In this document: positions 3,050 through 27,237 of the stretch, piece after piece | Position numbering within the stretch: position 1 is the stretch's first letter | How the letters are laid out: the number at the start of each line of letters is the position of its first letter | Assembly: GCA_964573185.1 (NCBI GenBank) | Contig: CAZNIQ010000007.1 | Location: 1-27,561 of the forward strand | DNA: 27,561 bases | Source of the DNA: Candidatus Woesearchaeota archaeon | GTDB lineage: Archaea > Nanobdellota > Nanobdellia > Nanobdellales > CAZNIQ01 | Direction: 5' to 3' | Notes under the pieces: model-generated | Databases searched by the model: none | Seen by the model: only the letters and a program-made list of their open reading frames with translations | Told to the model about the DNA's origin: nothing | Translations under genes and position numbers: made by a program

Positions 3050-3789
3050 TAAACTTTAACTGTTAATGCCTTCTTATAAGCTAATGAAACTATTTGATCA
3101 AACTTTTCCTTATTAGGGTACAATTCCCTTGCCATCTGAATAGCCTCCTCTATAGTTATTTCACCTTTCTTCAATTTTTGTCCAATTTCCCACCAAGGTT
3201 TATATTTTTCTATTATTTTCTGTTTTACTTCCTCAAAATGTTCTGGTAATTTCTCAGGATCAAAACCTCTTTGTAGGTATCCTCCAAATTGTCGTTTGTA
3301 TTTTTCAGGATTCTGTTCTTTCAATAACTTAGCATAAGCTGCTATATGTTCTCCCCTTATTCTTTCTTCTGTTGGAAATATACCTTCTCCATGAGGTATT
3401 TGCATTCCTGCATCAACTGCACCTTTTAATGCAGCAAATAACCTACCTCCTTTATGAGGAACTTGTCTTCCAACATCCAAAACAGCAATAAAAATTCCTC
3501 TCTTAAAGGATTTTAATGCAGCAAGTAATCCAGTTAAATAAGCTGTAGGAATGTTTCCTCTATATCCTTTCCATCCAAAATCCCTTTCTAAAACTTTTGA
3601 ATGTACTGTAACTACAACCCAATCGCTTTCCGGTTTATATAAAACAGTTTGACAGACCATGTTATAAATAGTTTTTCTTACAACAAATCTTGGCTTACCA
3701 GATAATAATAATTTTAATCTTTTTCTATAATCGGTTTTTCCCTCCCTCCTTCTTCTGTAAGGTACTCTATATCTTGGACCATGTGCCAT
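3049..3789 (-). CDS. rpl18: 50S ribosomal protein L18 (uL18/L5e) with C-terminal extension
   Basis: [40 protein letters not shown] is the archaeal L18 N-terminus. At 246 aa it is about 50 aa longer than usual. Confidence 0.85.
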
Positions 3790-3830: not shown

Positions 3831-3904
3831 GCCGCGGTGCCCGAGCGGTCCAAGGGGCCGGGCTGCAGACCCGGTAATCCGGGGTTCGAATCCCCGCCGC
3901 GGCT
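3831..3904 (+). tRNA. tRNA-Cys(GCA): tRNA-Cys (anticodon GCA), discriminator U
   Basis: GCCGCGG UG CCCG AGCGGUCCA AGGG G CCGGG CUGCAGA CCCGG UAAUC CGGGG UUCGAAU CCCCG CCGCGGC U. Confidence 0.85.
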
Positions 3905-8262: not shown

Positions 8263-8861
8263 CGTTCTGCCCTGATCCAAAAAGCATCAATCCTTTTAAT
8301 CTTTTTCTCATGAAACCAATATATGGCTTTTATAGGAAATTTTACTTCTTTCAAGATATCAACCTTAAAGCCCCTTTCTTTAAAGTACTCTAAAATTATC
8401 TTTTTCTTTGCTAAATCATGTATAGAATAAACGACATCAGAAATTTCCGTTGCTTTATCTAAAAACTTAAATAAAAGCTTTCTTTTTTGAACACCAAAAG
8501 GAGGATTCATTATAACAACATCAACTTTTTTATTAAACTCTGAAACATCTGTATTTAAAATTTCATAATTATTAAATTTCAATTTCGATAAATTTTCTTT
8601 TAAGATCTTTATAGCATCTGGGTCAATTTCAACAAAGTATACTTTCTTTGCACCTAAGATTAAAGCACCTATTCCTAAAATACCAGTACCGGCACCTAAA
8701 TCTGCTATTACTCTATTTTGAATATCTCCTTTCATAAAAGCCGTCCAAAGGATTTCAGAAGCAAGATCCGGATCTGTAGGATATTGTTCTAATTCTAATT
8801 TTGGTCTTTCAAAAGTTTTTAATTTAGAGAGAATAATTGCCAATTGTTTTTTAGTTATCAT
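8247..8861 (-). CDS. METTL5/COG2263-type RNA (N6-adenine) methyltransferase
   Basis: Motif I DLGAGTGILG, VYFVEID and catalytic NPPFG; 204 aa. Confidence 0.7.
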   Translation of the reverse strand: MITKKQLAIILSKLKTFERPKLELEQYPTDPDLASEILWTAFMKGDIQNRVIADLGAGTGILGIGALILGAKKVYFVEIDPDAIKILKENLSKLKFNNYEILNTDVSEFNKKVDVVIMNPPFGVQKRKLLFKFLDKATEISDVVYSIHDLAKKKIILEYFKERGFKVDILKEVKFPIKAIYWFHEKKIKRIDAFWIRAERFYII

Positions 8862-10658: not shown

Positions 10659-13600
10659 TTATTTTAATATTGTTAGAAATATCTTTAAACGATACCCTTT
10701 GATTTTCTCTACCGATGAGTAATCATAATGATCTATTTCCTTTTCTGAAGACGTTATCTTCAATTCTATAGCGTTTACATGCTTAGAGATTTTATCTCTG
10801 AACTCTTCAATCCAAGATTTTGTTTTTTCTTCAGAAACAATAAATACTTTTATCTTTTGATCCTTGGTTAGCTTCAATTTCTTTCTTCCTTCTTGTATTC
10901 TCCTTATAACTTCCCTCACAAATCCTTCTTTAAATAAATCTTCGGTTATTTCTTTGTTTAAAGCTATAAATCCAAATGGTAACCTCTCTATAACGTACCT
11001 GTCATCTTTAGATAGGAATTCTACCATTACATTGGACCAGTTTAATTCTACCCCCTCCAGCTCATATTTTCCTTTTTCTAATAGCTCCTTGTATATTCTT
11101 TTATGATCAATTTCAGATAACTTTGTAACTAATTTAGGTAATTTCTCTTCGGGTATTTTTGAGTAATCTAGCTTTATTTTTATTTCAACAAAATCTGGTA
11201 GTTCCGTAACAATTTTAACATCTTTCACATTTAATTTTGATAATAATACTTTTCTAACTTCTTCAAGCAGTTCTTTTTCCTCTTCAGATTTAACATATAT
11301 TATTGCTTCCTTTAATGGCCATCTTATTCCATATCCTACTTTTTTATCTCTTAATCTCCAACCAGCTTCTAGAATTTCTTTAACCAAATTAAAAGCTTTT
11401 TCAATTCTTTCATCTATCCATTTTTCATCTTTTTCTGGCCAAGGCAATAAATGTACAGATTCGCCATCTAATCCAAATGCTTCTTTCAAGTTAAGAAATG
11501 TTTTTTCAGTTATGAATGGAGCTACTATTGAAAACATGTTTATAGTGTCTAATAAAACTCTGTATATTACATAGAGTATTGTAGGTCTCGCTTCTTCATC
11601 TTCTTGAAGTCTCTCTCTAATTACTTTTATATAAAATCTTGACAATTCTAACCACAAGTTTTCTAACAACCTTCCAACTTTCCATAATTCATATTTTTCT
11701 AAGGCTTCTTCTACTTCCTTTTTAGTTTTCTCTAAAAGATGTAGCATATATTTATCCTCTGGTTCTAATTTCAATTCCTTTACCTCTTTAGGATTAATTC
11801 CATAGAACTTTGCTTGATCTATTAAGTACCTATGTATATTCCATAAAACATTTAATGTAGCTTGCTTCTCTCTAATTTTATTTATATCAACTCTTATATC
11901 TTCGTAAGCCTTAGCTGCTGTAGATAGATAAAATCTTGTAACGTCAGCACCGAAGTTCCTTATTAAATCAAAGGGATCAATAACATTACCTAATGATTTT
12001 GACATTTTTCTTCCTAAAGGATCTAGCGTATAACCATGTACATATACATTCTTATAAGGTATTTTACCGAAGTATACTGTTCCTAACACTGCTAAAGAAT
12101 AGAACCAACCACGTAATTGATCCAAACCTTCTATTATAAAGTCCACAGGAAATACGGGGGGTTCTCTTGATGCATATGGAGCTGAGCCAGAATCTATCCA
12201 AACATCAACAACATCTGGTACCCTTCTCATCTCTTGACCACACACTGGACACTTAAATGTAAAGTTATCCACAAAGGGTCTGTGCAAATCAAAGTTGTAA
12301 ACTCTTATTAACTCAAAGTCTCTTTGTCCCAGAGATCTTACTATAAAGTATTTTTCTTTTATTTTTCTAACAGTTTCATCGGATATAGAATCAACAAATA
12401 TAAATGTGTTATCTTCTACTTTATCTAATAATTCTAGTAGTTCTTCTTCCTTTGCTTCTATTTTTCTCTCTATATTGTAATATTCTTTTAACATCTCTTC
12501 AGCATACTCTGATTTTCTAACAACTATATATATTTTCTTTAGTCTCTTTCCAGTCAACTCTTCCAATTCTTTTATAGAACCTACAACATGTATATGTCCG
12601 TTAGGGCATCTCCAAACAGGTAAGGGTATTCCCCAATATCTTTGTCTGGATACAACCCAATCCGGTGCAGTTTCAATTACATGTCTAAAAGCTTCTTTAG
12701 CAGAAGGTGGTATGAAATTGACGTTTTCTAAATCTTCTAACAATTTCTCTTTTAATTTCTGAACGTTCAAAAACCACTGTTTTGTGGTTCTTATTATTAA
12801 TCTCGTGCCACATCTCCAACATATAGGGTAATCGTGTTCGTACCATTCAAAGTAAACTAATATTTTCTTTTCCTTTAATAGATTTACCCATTTAAGATCA
12901 TCAAACTTGGCTCGCCATCCTTCAAAGTAAGGAAGATTTCTAATGTATCCTTCTTCATCAACAGTATTAAAGGGTTTTACATTATATTTCAGACCTACTT
13001 CGTAATCTTCTGGACCACAACCTGGTGCAGAATGTACCAATCCTGTACCCTCTTCTGTAGTTACATATTCTTCAGAAAGCCAAACGGTAAAAGCATTTGG
13101 ATTTTCTTTTTTGATTTTGTCTAATACTCCTTTTAGTTCCTCATAGAAAGGCGGTATATATTCCTTTCCTTCAAGTTCTCTACCTAAAAATGTCTTAACT
13201 ATCTTATAATTCTGTATACCGAATTTTGCCATTAAAGCATTAACCAGATCTTTCGCAACTATCCAATATTCTTTCTTATTCTCATATGCGAGCTTTTCCT
13301 TTAACACTTTCTTTTCTTTTTCATCTATTTCTAATTCCTTAACATACGTTTTCGGAACCTCAACTAGAACATACTCTATATTTGGATTTACCATTACACC
13401 CAAGTTATATGTCAGCGTCCAAGGTGTTGTAGTCCAAATAAGTAAGTAAGTATTAGGATCTTCCTTTAATCTAAATTTAACGAAAATTGAAGGATCTATA
13501 GCCGGTTTATATTTCGGATCTCCATATCCTAATTCTATTTCATGTTTTGCTAATGTAGTTTGGCATCTAGGGCACCACCAAACAGGTTTTTCGCCTTCAT

Positions 13601-14111
13601 AAAGCAAACCTTGCTCATAAGCTTTCTTAAACATAGACCAAACCTTTTCTATATATTCATTAGTTATAGGCAAGTAAGGATTGTCCGTATCTTGCCAATG
13701 TGCCAATCTATGATATAATTCTATAAAGGAAAGCATAGAGCCATAAGCAAACTTTTTACATTCCTCTATGAACTTTTGTATCCCAATTTTCTCTATTTCT
13801 TTTTTAGTTTTTATTCCTAACTTCTTCTCTACTTTCTCTTCTATAGGTAAACCGTGCATATCAAAACCAGATTGTACCCAAACATGATATCCTTTCTTAG
13901 CTCTGTATCTTAGAACTATATCCTTTAAAGATCTATTCCAAGTATGTCCTAAATGTGGATTCCCTGTAGTATAAGGGGGTCCCTCTAAGAAATTAAAATC
14001 AGGTTTTCCTCTTTGCATTAACCTCCACTTTTGATATATTTTATTTTCTTCCCAAAAAGACAATACATCTTCCTCTTGTTTAGGATCCCACCTTGAGGGT
14101 ATTTTATTCAT
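10659..14111 (-). CDS. ileS: isoleucyl-tRNA synthetase
   Basis: HIGH-type PHLGH, GFDMHGLPIE, editing-domain TTTPWTL, zinc Cys pairs and KMSKS. Start set at ATG 14111; the track uses TTG 14120. Stop lies 2 nt before the tbp start. Confidence 0.9.
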   Translation of the reverse strand: MNKIPSRWDPKQEEDVLSFWEENKIYQKWRLMQRGKPDFNFLEGPPYTTGNPHLGHTWNRSLKDIVLRYRAKKGYHVWVQSGFDMHGLPIEEKVEKKLGIKTKKEIEKIGIQKFIEECKKFAYGSMLSFIELYHRLAHWQDTDNPYLPITNEYIEKVWSMFKKAYEQGLLYEGEKPVWWCPRCQTTLAKHEIELGYGDPKYKPAIDPSIFVKFRLKEDPNTYLLIWTTTPWTLTYNLGVMVNPNIEYVLVEVPKTYVKELEIDEKEKKVLKEKLAYENKKEYWIVAKDLVNALMAKFGIQNYKIVKTFLGRELEGKEYIPPFYEELKGVLDKIKKENPNAFTVWLSEEYVTTEEGTGLVHSAPGCGPEDYEVGLKYNVKPFNTVDEEGYIRNLPYFEGWRAKFDDLKWVNLLKEKKILVYFEWYEHDYPICWRCGTRLIIRTTKQWFLNVQKLKEKLLEDLENVNFIPPSAKEAFRHVIETAPDWVVSRQRYWGIPLPVWRCPNGHIHVVGSIKELEELTGKRLKKIYIVVRKSEYAEEMLKEYYNIERKIEAKEEELLELLDKVEDNTFIFVDSISDETVRKIKEKYFIVRSLGQRDFELIRVYNFDLHRPFVDNFTFKCPVCGQEMRRVPDVVDVWIDSGSAPYASREPPVFPVDFIIEGLDQLRGWFYSLAVLGTVYFGKIPYKNVYVHGYTLDPLGRKMSKSLGNVIDPFDLIRNFGADVTRFYLSTAAKAYEDIRVDINKIREKQATLNVLWNIHRYLIDQAKFYGINPKEVKELKLEPEDKYMLHLLEKTKKEVEEALEKYELWKVGRLLENLWLELSRFYIKVIRERLQEDEEARPTILYVIYRVLLDTINMFSIVAPFITEKTFLNLKEAFGLDGESVHLLPWPEKDEKWIDERIEKAFNLVKEILEAGWRLRDKKVGYGIRWPLKEAIIYVKSEEEKELLEEVRKVLLSKLNVKDVKIVTELPDFVEIKIKLDYSKIPEEKLPKLVTKLSEIDHKRIYKELLEKGKYELEGVELNWSNVMVEFLSKDDRYVIERLPFGFIALNKEITEDLFKEGFVREVIRRIQEGRKKLKLTKDQKIKVFIVSEEKTKSWIEEFRDKISKHVNAIELKITSSEKEIDHYDYSSVEKIKGYRLKIFLTILK

Positions 14112-14123
14112 TAAAACCAAAAC

Positions 14124-14152: not shown

Positions 14153-14662
14153 ATGTTATGGCTGGTCCTTGGCTTAGTTCTATTGGGAACTGTTGCAGGT
14201 ATTTATATCTTAAATCCAACAATTCAAACTGTAAAGATAGGTAATGAGACAATAAAAATTGGTGTTAAAGATGCTATCAATCTTTTAATAAATGCTATGA
14301 AACCTTTACCAGAAATGAAACATAATTATTCTTGCTTTCCATACTATGATAAAGTAATCTTACTCAACGGAACAAAAATATACGGAATTCCTAGAGAATT
14401 TTATAAATTAATGGGAGATACTATTGAAGTTTGCTATAAAAATTGTTGTATAAACGTTACTTTGAAAAATAAAATATTAATAAATATCAAACCCGCAAAT
14501 AAAACAATATACATCAAAGATAAGGAAATTTTAAATGAAATAATAAATCTTTTAGAAAAAGAAAACTATAATGGAGCCTTAAAAATAATAATAAAAGGAA
14601 TTATAGATGGAAAGATAAAGGGAGTTACAATTGAGGATATTAAAAGAATAGCAGGACTTTGA
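14153..14662 (+). CDS. membrane-anchored Cys-rich protein (KNCC family member 1)
   Basis: Start moved to ATG 14153 (MLWLVLGLVLLGTVAGIYIL signal/TM). The track start TTG 14093 overlaps the ileS start. Shares the YSC.P, KNCC and TIYIK motifs with the ORF at 17813. Confidence 0.55.
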   Translation: MLWLVLGLVLLGTVAGIYILNPTIQTVKIGNETIKIGVKDAINLLINAMKPLPEMKHNYSCFPYYDKVILLNGTKIYGIPREFYKLMGDTIEVCYKNCCINVTLKNKILINIKPANKTIYIKDKEILNEIINLLEKENYNGALKIIIKGIIDGKIKGVTIEDIKRIAGL

Positions 14663-15576
14663 GGGTATTTGTACAGTATCCAGAAGGCTTAAAGAACAAA
14701 CTTTGGGAAATAAAAAAGAAGTTAGAAGAACAAGGATATGAAGTCATTTTTGATAATGAACCGACGTATGGATTTTGTGATTTAAAGGATGATGAGGCTT
14801 TAAGATTAGGCTGTCAAGCTATAATACATATAGGGCATAATGCTTTTGGCTTTGAACATTTATTAAAGAAATCTAAAGTTAAAGTAATTATATGGGAATG
14901 GAAATATGATGTTGATAAAGAAAAAGTAGATAGAATACTTAAAAAAGAAATAAATAAGATTAGAGATTATAAGAGAGTCGGAATTGTATCTTCTTTACAA
15001 TATCTAAATTACGTTTATTATTTAAAGGAAAAACTTAAAGAATTGGGGTTTGAACCAATAGTACCAAAGAATCCGCAGATTTTAGGTTGTAATATTGCCA
15101 ATGCTAGAATAATAGAAAATAGAGTAGATATCTTTTTGGTTCCAACAGAAGGAAAATTTTATCCTTTAGGTTTAGCTTTAGAGACTGATAAACCGGTATT
15201 CGCTTTCGATTTAGAAAAAGAACAAATAATTTCAATGGAAAAGGAAAGGAAAAAATATTTAACTGTAAAATATTATTACTTAGAGAAATTTAAAGAAGCT
15301 AAGAAAGTTGCTTTGTTAGTATCATGGAAAAAGGGACAAATGTTTTATGATCCATTTAAAGTTAAAGAAGAATTGGAAAAAATGGGAAAAGAAGTTATTA
15401 TTCTAGCTATGGATGAAGTAGATGAAAGAAAATTAATTGGAATAGATGTGGATTTCTATATCAATTTAGCTTGTCCCAGGATCTTTGATGGGTTTGAAAG
15501 ATTTGAAAAACCAATACTAAATTGGAAAGATATTATTCAGTGGCGCCGCTCCCTTCATCAAAGTTCAGAGGACTGA
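14659..15576 (+). CDS. dph2: diphthamide synthase subunit Dph2 (2-(3-amino-3-carboxypropyl)histidine synthase)
   Basis: VQYPEGLKNKLWEIKKKLEEQGYEVIFDNEPTYGFCDL...IIHIGH, plus conserved Cys in LGCNI and LACPRI. Apparent TTG start overlaps the upstream stop. The last ~13 codons are antisense to a C/D sRNA. Confidence 0.8.
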   Translation: MRVFVQYPEGLKNKLWEIKKKLEEQGYEVIFDNEPTYGFCDLKDDEALRLGCQAIIHIGHNAFGFEHLLKKSKVKVIIWEWKYDVDKEKVDRILKKEINKIRDYKRVGIVSSLQYLNYVYYLKEKLKELGFEPIVPKNPQILGCNIANARIIENRVDIFLVPTEGKFYPLGLALETDKPVFAFDLEKEQIISMEKERKKYLTVKYYYLEKFKEAKKVALLVSWKKGQMFYDPFKVKEELEKMGKEVIILAMDEVDERKLIGIDVDFYINLACPRIFDGFERFEKPILNWKDIIQWRRSLHQSSED

Positions 15577-15587
15577 AAGCTCATCAT
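15537..15587 (-). ncRNA. box C/D sRNA (second unit of the tRNA-Leu array)
   Basis: Minus strand: C AUGAUGA 15587-15581; 12-nt guide gcuuucaguccu; D' CUGA 15568-15565; C' UGAUGA 15560-15555; 14-nt guide agggagcggcgcca; D CUGA 15540-15537. Confidence 0.85.
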
Positions 15588-15638
15588 TCAGTTAAGCCCG
15601 CCTTTCATCAAATTTCAGGGTCCCAGCTGTATCATCAT
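15588..15638 (-). ncRNA. box C/D sRNA (first unit, fused to the tRNA-Leu 3' end)
   Basis: Minus strand: C AUGAUGA 15638-15632, whose first A is the tRNA discriminator; 13-nt guide uacagcugggacc; D' CUGA 15618-15615; C' UGAUGA 15610-15605; 13-nt guide aaggcgggcuuaa; D CUGA 15591-15588. Confidence 0.88.
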
Positions 15639-15721
15639 GGGCCCGCCGGGATTTGAACCCGGGACGGCTCTACGCCATCGGGACCTGAACCCGACCCCTT
15701 TGGCCGCTCGGGCACGGGCCC
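15638..15721 (-). tRNA. tRNA-Leu(CAG): tRNA-Leu (anticodon CAG), class II with long variable arm
   Basis: rc: GGGCCCG UG CCCG AGCGGCCAA AGGG G UCGGG UUCAGGU CCCGA UGGCGUAGAGCCGUC CCGGG UUCAAAU CCCGG CGGGCCC A. Confidence 0.9.
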
Positions 15722-16936
15722 TTATGAAATTGCTTCTGCTATTATTATATTTCCCTTTATTTCTTTTATTCTTATCTTTTGAAAATTTTCGTTCTTTGAA
15801 TAAACAGATATTGTCCAATTTTTAAACTTCGTTAAATATTCATTTCTCCTCCTTCCTTCTACTATAGGTTCTGCTTTCAATACCATGCCTTTTCTAAAAG
15901 GATTCCTTATCATTTTTCCTTTCTTTATCCCTATTTCTCTTGGATCAAAATTTATCAATTTTATATTATATTTTTTCTCCAATTTTTTCAAGTAATCTAT
16001 AAATTCTTGTTTAGATATTCTTAGTTCTTTCCTCAATTTCCTTCCGTGCTTATAAACCATGTATATCTGCGGTACTATTTTTAATCTCCATTTATTCTTT
16101 AGTTTTTTAGCAAACTCAATTAATTTTTCCAGATCCTCTAAATTCCATTTAAAAATTACTGGAGTCAATGTTATTTCAACCTTTCCATTTATATTCTCAA
16201 TTATCCACAAAACTTTTTCTAAATCATAATCATGATTTCCTACTAATATTTTTGCCTTTTTAGGATCTAATGTATGAATTGAAAGGTTTATATAGGACAA
16301 TCCGGCTTCTATCCATCCTTCAACATCCTTCAAATCAACTCCTACTAATGTCGTTGTAATTCCAACCCTCCCAATTTCTGATAAGTCCTGTATAAGTTCT
16401 GTTAATTCTGGATACAATATTGGTTCCCCTTGAGGATTTATATAGAAATCTGGCTCATCAACTTCTTTTAGTTTTACAATTCTTTTTGCCTCTTCAACTA
16501 AATATTCTCTCTGAACTATAAAGTCCCTTATCCAGTATTTTTCTCTTGGTCCTTCACGAACAGAGCAAAAAATACATTGGTTTAAACATCCTGTAATTGG
16601 TCTTACCTCTATTACATTAGAAGGCCAATCTCTAAATCCAAAATATAAAGTTCCTAGCAAAGGTAAAAAGTCAAAATCTATATAGGTTGCTTTTCTTCCT
16701 GTAATTAAGGATTTCATTTCATAATGAATTTTATTGTAAAGAATGTCTAAAAATCTATTTTTCACATAATTTTCTTTTTTTGAATAAAAAATTATTACTC
16801 CATCTTTTACCTCAAATGGTGCTAAATCCCTTATTTCCTCCTTATATATTTCAAAATAAAACATATTATAGAAAATGCCTAGTATTTTATTTCCCCTTTC
16901 TTTGAATTTCAACGTTTTAAACTCAAATTTAAGCAT
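15722..16936 (-). CDS. radical SAM protein (COG2100-like Fe-S oxidoreductase)
   Basis: CxxxCxxC cluster motif GCLNQCIFCSV; 404 aa; stop TAA directly abuts G1 of tRNA-Leu. Confidence 0.7.
   Translation of the reverse strand: MLKFEFKTLKFKERGNKILGIFYNMFYFEIYKEEIRDLAPFEVKDGVIIFYSKKENYVKNRFLDILYNKIHYEMKSLITGRKATYIDFDFLPLLGTLYFGFRDWPSNVIEVRPITGCLNQCIFCSVREGPREKYWIRDFIVQREYLVEEAKRIVKLKEVDEPDFYINPQGEPILYPELTELIQDLSEIGRVGITTTLVGVDLKDVEGWIEAGLSYINLSIHTLDPKKAKILVGNHDYDLEKVLWIIENINGKVEITLTPVIFKWNLEDLEKLIEFAKKLKNKWRLKIVPQIYMVYKHGRKLRKELRISKQEFIDYLKKLEKKYNIKLINFDPREIGIKKGKMIRNPFRKGMVLKAEPIVEGRRRNEYLTKFKNWTISVYSKNENFQKIRIKEIKGNIIIAEAIS
15741..15752 (-). promoter_or_regulatory. TATA-like AAATATAATAAT at -31..-20 of tRNA-Leu, inside the last codons of the radical-SAM CDS
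   Basis: rc of 15741-15752; encodes the N-I-I-I of the CDS C-terminus. Confidence 0.5.
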
Positions 16937-17048: not shown

Positions 17049-17097
17049 ATGATGATGAGTGGGTTTGCTGAAAATGATGAATGGCATGGGACACTGA
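17049..17097 (+). ncRNA. box C/D sRNA lying inside the 5' end of the UDG ORF
   Basis: C AUGAUGA 17049-17055; 12-nt guide ugaguggguuug; D' CUGA 17068-17071; C' AUGAUGA 17074-17080; 13-nt guide auggcaugggaca; D CUGA 17094-17097. Confidence 0.85.
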
Positions 17098-19689: not shown

Positions 19690-19739
19690 TCAGACAGGGC
19701 CTCAGCTCATCATATTCAGCGTCGGTGTAGAATCATCAT
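19690..19739 (-). ncRNA. box C/D sRNA filling the gap between two convergent genes
   Basis: Minus strand: C AUGAUGA 19739-19733; 13-nt guide uucuacaccgacg; D' CUGA 19719-19716; C' AUGAUGA 19713-19707; 13-nt guide gcugaggcccugu; D CUGA 19693-19690. Confidence 0.88.
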
Positions 19740-19981: not shown

Positions 19982-20073
19982 GGGCCCGTAGCTCAGCCTG
20001 GTTAGAGCGCCGGCCTTATAAGGCCGGGCTCTAAGACAGCCGGAGGTCCCGGGTTCAAATCCCGGCGGGCCCA
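19982..20073 (+). tRNA. tRNA-Ile(UAU): tRNA-Ile (anticodon UAU) with a 17-nt intron at the canonical 37/38 position
   Basis: GGGCCCG UA GCUC AGCCUGGUUA GAGC G CCGGC CUUAUA[intron]A GCCGG AGGUC CCGGG UUCAAAU CCCGG CGGGCCC A; mature length 75 nt. Confidence 0.85.
20021..20037 (+). other. tRNA intron with bulge-helix-bulge motif
   Basis: Intron AGGCCGGGCUCUAAGAC. C32-U33-U34-A35 pair with intron UAAG (20032-20035). The 3-nt bulges U36-A37-A and A-C-A38 flank this 4-bp helix, with both splice sites between bulge nucleotides 2 and 3. Confidence 0.75.
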
Positions 20074-23624: not shown

Positions 23625-23696
23625 GGGGCCGTAGTCTAGCGGCATGACGCCGCCCTGACGAGGCGGAGGTCCGGGGTTCGAATCCCCGCGGCCCCA
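23625..23696 (+). tRNA. tRNA-Val(GAC): tRNA-Val (anticodon GAC)
   Basis: GGGGCCG UA GUCU AGCGGCA UGAC G CCGCC CUGACGA GGCGG AGGUC CGGGG UUCGAAU CCCCG CGGCCCC A. Confidence 0.88.
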
Positions 23697-23780
23697 GCCG
23701 CGGTGCCCGAGCGGTCCAAGGGGTCGGTCTGGAGAGCCGATGGCCGTAAGGCCTCCGGGGTTCGAATCCCCGCCGCGGCG
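23697..23780 (+). tRNA. tRNA-Ser(GGA): tRNA-Ser (anticodon GGA), class II, discriminator G
   Basis: GCCGCGG UG CCCG AGCGGUCCA AGGG G UCGGU CUGGAGA GCCGA UGGCCGUAAGGCCUC CGGGG UUCGAAU CCCCG CCGCGGC G. Starts at the base after the tRNA-Val discriminator. Confidence 0.88.
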
Positions 23781-26378: not shown

Positions 26379-27101
26379 ATGAAAGTACTACAGATACTCA
26401 AAGAAAGATATCCTGATACTTATGAAAAGATAATTAAAGGAGAAGTAGACAAGATAAAGCCAAAAGACGAGATTGAAAAGATGCTTCTTGAAATTTTCTT
26501 TTCTAATGATAGGAGGAGTTCAAAATACATTGATGAATTTTTTAGATTAAAATGTGCAAAAGATATAGTTGAAATTTTAGGTAAGAATCTTTCAGCAAAA
26601 GAAATTACTGAAGCAATGAGTATTAGAGACAGATTAAGGAAATTAGATATAAAGGATGCTATTGTTTTTGATTTTTGTGCAGGAAAAGCAATATTTTCTT
26701 TATTAGTAGCATTTACTTTACCAGTTAGAAAAGTTATCGCAATAGATATCAAAAAACCGAATATAGATTTTTCAGGAGTAAGAAAATTTGAGTACTATGA
26801 GGTTAATTTATTTGATAAAGAAGTTGAGGAGATTATAGAAAAAGAAGAAGGTAGGAAAATTTTTGTTGGAATCCATTGTTGTAAAAATTTATCTATAAGA
26901 GTAATAGAGTTATTCAATAAATATGGAGATTATTTATTTTTAATGCCTTGTTGTGTTTTAAGAACTTTTAAGAACGATTTCTGGGGATATATAGATTGGG
27001 TAAAGTTCCTAGTATCAAAAGTTAAAAAGGGGAAGGTTAAAGTAGAATGGGATTGGGATGTGTGGTCCGAAAGAAATGCTATAATTCAGGTGATGACCTG
27101 A
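26379..27101 (+). CDS. putative Rossmann-fold methyltransferase-like protein (weak)
   Basis: VFDFCAGKAIFSLL...VIAIDIK resembles MTase motifs I/II; paired Cys motifs HCCKN and MPCC. The last codons GTG ATG ACC form box C of the following sRNA. Confidence 0.4.
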   Translation: MKVLQILKERYPDTYEKIIKGEVDKIKPKDEIEKMLLEIFFSNDRRSSKYIDEFFRLKCAKDIVEILGKNLSAKEITEAMSIRDRLRKLDIKDAIVFDFCAGKAIFSLLVAFTLPVRKVIAIDIKKPNIDFSGVRKFEYYEVNLFDKEVEEIIEKEEGRKIFVGIHCCKNLSIRVIELFNKYGDYLFLMPCCVLRTFKNDFWGYIDWVKFLVSKVKKGKVKVEWDWDVWSERNAIIQVMT

Positions 27102-27139
27102 TAGGCAAACAGAGAAATGAAGAACCTACCCGTAACTGA
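27090..27139 (+). ncRNA. box C/D sRNA (unit 1 of 3)
   Basis: C GUGAUGA 27090-27096; 13-nt guide ccugauaggcaaa; D' CAGA 27110-27113; C' AUGAAGA 27117-27123; 12-nt guide accuacccguaa; D CUGA 27136-27139. Confidence 0.75.
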
Positions 27140-27187
27140 TGATGAGCCTGTTACCATCAGATTTATGAAGACACCGCGAGGTGCTGA
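27139..27187 (+). ncRNA. box C/D sRNA (unit 2 of 3)
   Basis: C AUGAUGA 27139-27145 (first A shared with the preceding box D); 12-nt guide gccuguuaccau; D' CAGA 27158-27161; C' AUGAAGA 27165-27171; 12-nt guide caccgcgaggug; D CUGA 27184-27187. Confidence 0.8.
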
Positions 27188-27237
27188 ATGATGAATTTTC
27201 CTGCTACTGAAAATTGATGAAAGGTCCCATTCACTGA
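27188..27237 (+). ncRNA. box C/D sRNA (unit 3 of 3)
   Basis: C AUGAUGA 27188-27194; 12-nt guide auuuuccugcua; D' CUGA 27207-27210; C' UGAUGA 27215-27220; 13-nt guide aaggucccauuca; D CUGA 27234-27237. Confidence 0.88.

Follow-up and report, generated by a model that had tools for sequence, protein, structure and literature searches.

On the minus strand of contig CAZNIQ010000007.1, analysed over its whole length of 27,561 bp (the window; GC 31.6%), a tRNA-Leu(CAG) gene and two box C/D small RNA (sRNA) genes, sRNA1 and sRNA2, followed the stop codon of a radical-SAM coding sequence (CDS). The three RNA genes occupied 185 nt, with spacers of 0 nt (CDS to tRNA), -1 nt (tRNA to sRNA1) and 0 nt (sRNA1 to sRNA2). 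They probably form one co-transcribed tRNA-Leu(CAG)/sRNA1/sRNA2 unit, the product of genome compaction that removed every spacer. The locus shows the extent of gene packing that is possible in nanoarchaea, spacers on the contig being typically either 0 nt or ~37 nt, the room taken by a promoter.

Geometry of the Array

The radical-SAM CDS (15722-16936, minus strand; Pfam PF04055, E = 3.8e-18) ended with a TAA codon at 15724-15722 which directly adjoined G1 of tRNA-Leu. The encoded protein was 82% identical over its full length to a homologue (P0005), and the stop codon adjoining G1 was taken as genuine because the C-terminus aligned to the end of that homologue. tRNA-Leu(CAG) (15638-15721, minus strand) was 84 nt long; its acceptor stem of 7 bp was perfect, its variable arm was long and its discriminator was A15638 (A73), with no CCA encoded. 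ARAGORN and the Rfam tRNA model (RF00005, 52.4 bits with a threshold of 29, full model covered) both placed its termini at 15638 and 15721, flush with box C of sRNA1. A15638 did double duty as tRNA-Leu discriminator and as the first base of the sRNA1 box C, AUGAUGA. At the first two junctions the minus strand read ...GCA ATT TCA TAA / GGGCCCG...CGGGCCC A/UGAUGA...

Both sRNAs had perfect AUGAUGA and CUGA boxes, a CUGA box D', a UGAUGA box C', guides of 12-14 nt and a 4-nt linker, and were 51 nt long each. sRNA1 (15588-15638, minus strand) comprised box C at 15638-15632, D' at 15618-15615, C' at 15610-15605 and D at 15591-15588, in the layout AUGAUGA-13 nt-CUGA-AAUU-UGAUGA-13 nt-CUGA, with guides UACAGCUGGGACC (D') and AAGGCGGGCUUAA (D). 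sRNA2 (15537-15587, minus strand) comprised box C at 15587-15581, D' at 15568-15565, C' at 15560-15555 and D at 15540-15537, in the layout AUGAUGA-12 nt-CUGA-ACUU-UGAUGA-14 nt-CUGA, with guides GCUUUCAGUCCU (D') and AGGGAGCGGCGCCA (D). The distal part of sRNA2 overlapped the dph2 CDS (14659-15576, plus strand; Pfam PF01866 Diphthamide_syn, E = 1.8e-50) in antisense by 40 nt. A preliminary description of this DNA had given the same positions for the stop codon, the tRNA, both sRNAs and their C and D boxes, and likewise zero spacing, the 185-nt span and about 40 nt antisense to dph2; all of these were reproduced with the sequence, ARAGORN, Rfam and pattern searches.

A hairpin, CCAAU-UUAGU-AUUGG followed by U5 (15506-15525, minus strand), lay 12-31 nt downstream of the sRNA2 box D, within dph2 coding sequence, and was present in both the minimum free energy and the centroid folds. 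The hairpin and U5 are a possible transcription stop of the unit, a role kept as a candidate because the T5 run was not conserved in a relative (GCA_054017035.1).

Zero or negative spacing occurred at 25 of the 47 junctions between neighbouring features on the contig, and most other junctions were ~27-48 nt (just promoter-sized) or >200 nt. The array is one instance of this extreme packing. Since zero spacing was general on the contig, the array need not reflect a special maturation logic.

Authenticity and Targets of the sRNAs

A four-box pattern gave 9 (strict) or 11 (relaxed) matches in the window compared with 0.005-0.01 expected from 200 shuffles, and a pattern running from tRNA to box C gave no match in 100 shuffles. 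An orthologue of sRNA2 was found in the relative GCA_054017035.1 (L004:7462-7511), with 49 of 51 nucleotides identical; the upstream sequence was unrelated, and the flanking dph2 DNA was ~80% identical. As judged from sequence comparison, sRNA2 is under selection, with an rRNA target. No sRNA1 orthologue was found in the related loci examined or in a metagenome scan, in which the sRNA1 D-guide pattern TGATGANNGGCGGGCTTAACTGA gave a single chance match (a human-gut contig) and no relatives.

Rfam confirmed the tRNA of the preliminary description, and for its C/D sRNAs gave sub-threshold matches only, with no C/D family in the window at gathering threshold. The best match of sRNA1 was sR18 (RF01141; 30.9 bits; E = 3.9e-5 local and 0.0027 for the whole window), and the likeness fell in both guides (common residues ACAGC..GG.CC and GG.GGGCUUA). 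sRNA1 thus resembles Pyrococcus sR18 in sequence but is not assignable as a member of RF01141, whose gathering score of 45 it does not reach. A literature search for targets of Pyrococcus sR18 yielded nothing usable.

Targets were searched in the 3' 2,446 nt of the relative's 23S rRNA (L004, GCA_054017035.1), a reference that excluded its 5' 555 nt, 16S rRNA and the source organism's own rRNA. The D' guide of sRNA2 paired over 12 bp (11 Watson-Crick and 1 GU) at the equivalent of Escherichia coli positions 2735-2746 (p = 0.002), which was equalled by 0.17% of shuffled guides; sRNA25 of Nanoarchaeum equitans is predicted to target the same 23S region (PMC3491384 supplement). The D guide of sRNA2 formed 9 Watson-Crick bp 123 nt downstream of the D' site, with 4 unpaired nt beside box D, and was not significant alone (p = 0.21). 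The D guide of sRNA1 formed 10 bp (8 Watson-Crick and 2 GU) immediately upstream of the sarcin-ricin helix (p = 0.065), and the D' guide of sRNA1 had no match in these 2,446 nt. The search method works, because a control sRNA (19690-19739) found two nearby targets, of 13 bp and 10 bp, 33 nt apart in the same 23S rRNA. E. coli rRNA was powerless as a reference (17 of 22 real and 15 of 22 shuffled guides reached threshold); it had pointed to the 2735-2746 site, which was then confirmed on the relative's rRNA. Targets in the eight tRNAs of the window were rejected, the best being 8 contiguous bp in generic GC-rich T-arms. The sRNAs are predicted to guide 2'-O-methylation, or to act as folding chaperones, in the 3'-terminal domain of 23S rRNA; the computed pairing shows this for the D' guide of sRNA2 and is suggestive for the D guide of sRNA1.

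It is hardly credible that the box patterns arose by chance in AT-rich DNA or belong to decaying pseudogenes. The sub-threshold Rfam scores would agree with such an origin, but it was effectively refuted by 11 pattern matches where 0.01 were expected, by the 96% conservation of sRNA2 between flanks that were not conserved, by the 12-bp complementarity to rRNA (p = 0.002), and by the guide-level likeness of sRNA1 to sR18.

Transcription of the Unit

A sigma-70 promoter scanner being inapplicable to archaea, a local weight matrix was used in its place. It was built from 16 regions upstream of tRNAs and of sRNAs that stand alone, in the window and in the relative, with a core TTTAAA starting at about -37 to -26. 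Its leave-one-out mean was 5.5 bits; background had a mean of 0.9 bits and a 95th percentile of 5.7 bits. Upstream of sRNA1, where the 45 nt are GC-rich tRNA, the score was -7.5 bits (background quantile 0.005), and no promoter was possible. Because no promoter can lie between them, tRNA-Leu and sRNA1 must, on the matrix scores, be co-transcribed and then cut apart. The score upstream of sRNA2 was 2.2 bits, which was background (quantile 0.67). Units on the contig with their own promoter had spacers of ~27-48 nt before them, and units without a promoter had 0 nt.

The TATA-like element upstream of tRNA-Leu, AAATATAATAAT (15741-15752, minus strand; -31 to -20 from the tRNA +1), lay within the last radical-SAM codons, at the same distance as the TTTAAA boxes of other tRNAs, and resembled the tRNA-Thr box AAATATAAAA. 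The equivalent codons of the relative read GGTGGTATTGTTATC, and RtcB, not a tRNA, follows the radical-SAM gene there. The position claimed earlier for this candidate promoter was correct, and the element was missing in the relative, but it scored 0.61 bits, the background median (quantile 0.47). A promoter at AAATATAATAAT is, on these sequence features, possible but unproven.

It is just as possible that the unit has no promoter of its own and is the 3' part of the radical-SAM transcript, from which RNase P would cut it directly behind the stop codon, in the manner of tRNA punctuation in mitochondria. The zero spacer from stop codon to G1 and the background score of the TATA-like box fit such read-through, as does RNase P being reported in Nst1 (PMC3655853). 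An sRNA located 4 nt upstream of tRNA-Leu(TAG) (L001) and of tRNA-Leu(GAG) (L119) in relatives would also need tRNA 5' processing, and a triple sRNA array at 27090-27237 likewise begins inside a CDS end without a promoter. Read-through is less easily reconciled with an AT-rich AAATATAATAAT which lies at -31 to -20 like the boxes of other tRNAs, resembles the tRNA-Thr box, and is missing in the relative, where no tRNA follows the gene; moreover, no RNase P RNA was detected on the contig with Rfam, a negative that says little about the whole genome. That sRNA2 has a weak promoter of its own, which would make a cut between sRNA1 and sRNA2 unnecessary, is highly improbable. The AT-rich D'-C' linker of sRNA1, CUGAAAUUUGAUGA, lies at the right distance (-31 to -18 from A15587) for such a promoter, +1 is a purine, and the counterpart linker before the sRNA at 27188 is AGATTTATGA. 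Yet the two linkers scored 2.2 and 2.9 bits (quantiles 0.67 and 0.74) compared with a mean of 5.5 bits for real promoters, and the ancestral promoter seen in the relative was replaced, not kept.

Maturation

In the co-transcribed unit, transcription would start at G1 of the tRNA from the weak TATA-like box, or would read through from the radical-SAM mRNA, with RNase P cutting between TAA and G1. Following the published model, tRNase Z would cut after A15638, giving the tRNA 3' end for CCA addition, and the same cut would leave a 5'-monophosphate sRNA1-sRNA2 piece starting with UGAUGA. L7Ae, Nop5 and fibrillarin would assemble on box C/D and C'/D' of each sRNA and protect the sRNA bodies, and a 3' trailer of ~30 nt with the hairpin and U5 would be trimmed to box D of sRNA2. 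The sRNA1-sRNA2 piece may persist as a stable four-guide RNA of ~101 nt or may be cut by an endonuclease. If the unit is one transcript, the locus is a compact natural substrate for asking whether one molecule can yield both a tRNA and a guide RNA when the base at their boundary belongs to both, and what parts two C/D sRNAs without a linker.

Several points weigh against this scheme. To our knowledge, no enzyme acts on the CUGA/AUGAUGA junction between sRNA1 and sRNA2, and side-by-side small ribonucleoproteins (sRNPs) would shield this junction from exonucleases. No cleavage signal, bulge-helix-bulge or other, was found in the fold of the array (z = 0), and the TATA-like box of tRNA-Leu scored no better than AT-rich background. 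No gene for RNase Z, L7Ae, Nop5 or fibrillarin was found among the scanned open reading frames (ORFs) of the 27,561-bp contig; fibrillarin and Nop5 genes were seen in related Nanopusillaceae loci. Three of the four guides had no statistically secure target in the relative's partial 23S rRNA. Finally, the RNA-seq interval of N. equitans sRNA3 (54028-54085; coordinates checked on L042) has its start 5 nt within tRNA-Gly and so misses the RNase Z site, which by analogy hints that tRNA and sRNA maturation may compete where the boundary base is shared. The coverage of sRNA3 (3,800) was the second lowest of 26 sRNAs, after sRNA10 at 3,200 (PMC3491384 supplement). The geometry from which the preliminary description had read its maturation logic is real, but is not distinctive, given the 25 of 47 junctions without spacing; the picture of one cut making two ends is weakened by the start of sRNA3 inside tRNA-Gly and by the CUGA/AUGAUGA junction.

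A rather unlikely alternative is that maturation is either/or, or that the sRNAs stay joined, with ends produced by exonuclease trimming against the bound sRNP and no shared cut. In the either/or form, each precursor would give the tRNA, or else an sRNA1 that retains a few tRNA nucleotides, and sRNA1-sRNA2 may be one four-guide RNA of ~101 nt or may need a further endonuclease. Processed N. equitans sRNAs usually keep flanks of 3-5 nt on the box C side and 2-4 nt on the box D side, and sRNA3, the exact precedent, is listed from GGCGCA/UGAUGA inside tRNA-Gly at low coverage, although this boundary may be blurred by abundant tRNA reads. The published model, in which the sRNP shields the body while the ends are nibbled (PMC7994747), agrees with trimming, and the effect on maturation of the 4-nt overlap of Pyrobaculum sR34/sR40 was called unclear by its authors (PMC6009581). 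Candidate targets of the sRNA1 D, sRNA2 D' and sRNA2 D guides fell within ~230 nt of 23S domain VI, a clustering that would suit a linked multi-guide RNA, but two of these three assignments were not significant. Both in this lineage and in N. equitans, many sRNAs also seem to start right at box C from their own promoter, so that a 5' flank is not required.

Origin of the Fusion

The relative has sRNA2 as a solitary gene, with a TTTAAAT box of its own ahead of it and with box D adjoining the dph2 stop codon; in the window, sRNA1 occupies the place of that sRNA2 promoter. The fusion is, by this comparison, recent, because sRNA2 stands alone with its own promoter in the relative. A 19-nt deletion relative to L004 took away the ancestral dph2 stop codon, and the final 13 codons of dph2 consequently lie on the strand antisense to sRNA2. 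Homology of Dph2 to the relative's protein stopped at residue 292. More distant dph2 loci had neither sRNA2 nor the tRNA. A search for conserved synteny through homologues of the radical-SAM protein, uracil-DNA glycosylase, isoleucyl-tRNA synthetase (IleRS) and Dph2 found none, and recovered sRNA2 alone, in the closest relative. The sRNA genes change transcriptional partners between close relatives.

Relation to Known Systems

The unit is no new kind of system; it joins a tRNA-C/D sRNA dicistron with a polycistronic sRNA cluster, and the zero spacers are what is notable. The combination of a tRNA and two sRNAs without spacers is new but incremental, as precedents for every element have been published. 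The dicistronic tRNA-sRNA precursors of N. equitans that the preliminary description mentions were published by Randau in 2012, with RNase Z proposed to make the sRNA 5' end; this model was stated for tRNA-Val/sRNA8, and the supplement places sRNA3 beside tRNA-Gly (PMC3491384). At the N. equitans locus (L042), the discriminator A of tRNA-Gly is the first base of the sRNA3 box C, AUGAUGA, a geometry as in the window. N. equitans belongs to the same phylum, has the same GC (~31%), and also has a C/D sRNA directly 3' of the tRNA. It differs in having one sRNA per case instead of two, a UUUU spacer in tRNA-Val/sRNA8, and tRNA-Gly(TCC) and tRNA-Val in place of tRNA-Leu. N. equitans also lacks RNase P and dph2, whereas the lineage of the window probably has RNase P and the contig has dph2.

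Breuer 2021, in summarising Tripp 2017, describes clusters of two or three sRNA genes, and it also mentions tRNA-sRNA fusions in Ignicoccus hospitalis, Thermoproteus tenax and N. equitans, with the RNase Z model there too (PMC7994747). Lui 2018 reported co-transcribed sR34/sR40 of Pyrobaculum neutrophilum with a 4-nt overlap of D and C boxes, and Pyrobaculum sR44 8 nt after tRNA-Met by the paper's own count (PMC6009581). Among these polycistronic or overlapping sRNAs (Tripp 2017, as summarised by Breuer 2021, and sR34/sR40), as in the window, neighbours share a strand, have a spacer of zero or negative length, and are co-transcribed. The pair in the window, in contrast, is also fused to a tRNA, and a single contig has several such junctions (15587/15588, 27139 and 27187/27188), with another at L001:10957 of the relative. 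For plants, Kruszka 2003 reportedly described tRNA-Gly/snoR43, where RNase Z processing of the tRNA 3' end frees the box C/D RNA; that eukaryotic case has an RNA polymerase III tRNA promoter, a spacer and a single snoRNA, compared with zero spacer and two sRNAs in the window. The earlier proposal that one cut makes two ends stands in that co-transcription of tRNA-Leu and sRNA1 is forced by the promoter scores, but the idea had already been published for N. equitans, other archaea and plants.

In animal mitochondria, tRNA punctuation (Ojala et al. 1981) reportedly has CDS stops adjoining tRNAs and tRNAs adjoining each other, so that tRNA excision sets the ends of the neighbours. The adjoining CDS stop and tRNA-Leu and the adjoining tRNA-Val and tRNA-Ser of the window are alike in this respect; the window differs in being part of a cellular archaeal genome with many individual promoters, for which polycistronic transcription is a prediction.

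A scan for tRNA-sRNA units covered one genome from each of 185,579 species, a collection that did not hold the source genome, with the pattern GTTCRAATC-N11-16-RTGATGA-N17-24-TGAWGA. It gave 110 matches, 18 of which were true tRNA-sRNA units, a lower bound because the pattern was restrictive. The units involved tRNA-Gln (9) and tRNA-Val (1) in Micrarchaeota, tRNA-Ser in Archaeoglobaceae, tRNA-Ala(CGC) in Acidianus and in a metagenome-assembled genome (MAG) of Desulfurococcales, tRNA-Ala(GGC) in the MAG of an unclassified archaeon (L051), and tRNA-Gly in N. equitans. Except for N. equitans, 1-4 nt separated the discriminator from the sRNA (4 nt being the upper limit of the pattern), in contrast to the shared base in the window, and none of the 18 units had a second sRNA directly behind, unlike the window. 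In the nine Micrarchaeota units (L019, L022, L053, L062, L063, L067, L095, L097 and L110), tRNA-Gln(UUG) and a C/D sRNA were separated by 3-4 nt and the guides were conserved (GACGAGGUAUU.. / ..AGAGAGUC.); these genomes had a GC of 44-52% and were not obviously those of hyperthermophiles.

TIGR arrays (TIGR-Tas) have 36-nt units with 9-nt spacers, usually 5-15 units, and an adjacent Tas effector with a Nop domain (PMC12045711). They have in common with C/D arrays two alternating short repeats parted by short guides. In the arrays of the window, the edge repeat was CUGA+AUGAUGA (10-11 nt), the loop repeat was CUGA-N3-4-UGAUGA (13-14 nt), and the guides were 12-14 nt. Compared with TIGR arrays, those of the window and the relative had 2-3 units of 48-51 nt with canonical kink-turn boxes, and an rRNA target, not a DNA target. 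No Tas (Nop-domain) gene was found among the 27 ORFs of at least 90 aa scanned on the contig, and membership of the TIGR arrays was rejected because the size of the units, the lengths of spacers and arrays, and the lack of a Tas gene all spoke against it. It is very unlikely that the spacer-free C/D runs are miniature arrays cut by a dedicated nuclease at the D/C junctions, or linked multi-guide sRNPs on 23S domain VI. If they were, nothing else in cells would come closer to TIGR arrays, and they would offer a natural system in which to study array cutting; tRNase Z or RNase P at zero-spacer tRNA/sRNA and tRNA/tRNA junctions would be part of the same economy.

Other Features of the Contig

tRNA-Val(GAC) (23625-23696) and tRNA-Ser(GGA) (23697-23780), both on the plus strand, adjoined with zero spacer, discriminator A23696 being followed by G23697. 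The score upstream of tRNA-Ser was -10.4 bits, at which no promoter is possible, and this tRNA must therefore be co-transcribed with the preceding one; one cleavage, either by RNase Z or by RNase P, would make the 3' end of tRNA-Val and the 5' end of tRNA-Ser. The triple C/D sRNA array on the plus strand (27090-27139, 27139-27187 and 27188-27237) overlapped the final 12 nt of a methyltransferase-domain CDS (26379-27101) and had no significant promoter before any unit, with background scores upstream of the units at 27139 (1.4 bits) and 27188 (2.9 bits, quantile 0.74). Its first junction shared one base (CUGAUGAUGA), and its second had zero spacer. The pair at L001:10957 of the relative also had one common base.

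CDS ends exactly adjoined tRNA or sRNA ends of the opposite strand at 3904/3905, 17705, 19689/19690, 20073/20074, 23780/23781 and 27237/27238. Seven gaps of 219-383 nt on the contig held no annotated feature. A complete C/D sRNA at 17049-17097 (plus strand) lay within codons 1-16 of the uracil-DNA glycosylase gene, its box C AUGAUGA encoding the Met-Met start; given a TTTAAAT box near -30, the transcript may be leaderless. This sRNA and its guides were conserved in the relative (L004:9998-10046), where box C was GUGAUGA. Two C/D sRNAs on opposite strands of the same locus, L004:8488-8535 (plus) and 8531-8579 (minus), overlapped by 5 nt at their box D ends. The reverse order, an sRNA with tRNA-Leu 4 nt further on, occurred at L001:11456-11593 (TAG; GCA_054017035.1) and at L119:18862-18998 (GAG; Nanoarchaeota NZ13-N). 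This order would need tRNA 5' processing, and is consistent with RNase P being retained in the family.

IleRS identity was 67% to Candidatus Nanopusillus sp., 58% to Nanoarchaeota NZ13-N, 48% to Nanobdella and 42% to N. equitans NEQ230. Because of this identity series, the source is classed, on sequence, as a Nanopusillaceae-like nanoarchaeon, AT-rich and of hyperthermophile type. Nst1, a member of the Nanopusillaceae, was reported to have the proteins of RNase P and a short form of its RNA, and RNase P to be missing only from N. equitans (PMC3655853); by analogy, RNase P is probably present in the source lineage. By Pfam and homology, the contig held housekeeping genes only. The Pfam scan comprised the 27 ORFs of at least 90 aa; it left out four antisense-embedded ORFs and IleRS (10659-14120, minus strand), which was identified by homology. 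IleRS was 1150-1153 aa long, compared with 1064-1078 aa in its closest homologues, and the ~80 extra residues suggest a lineage-specific insertion. A tRNA at 19982-20073 (plus strand) had an 18-nt intron after position 37 and received no identity from ARAGORN; its anticodon loop, CUUAUA, suggests tRNA-Ile(UAU). A tRNA-Ile intron was reported to be common to Nanoarchaeota (PMC3655853).

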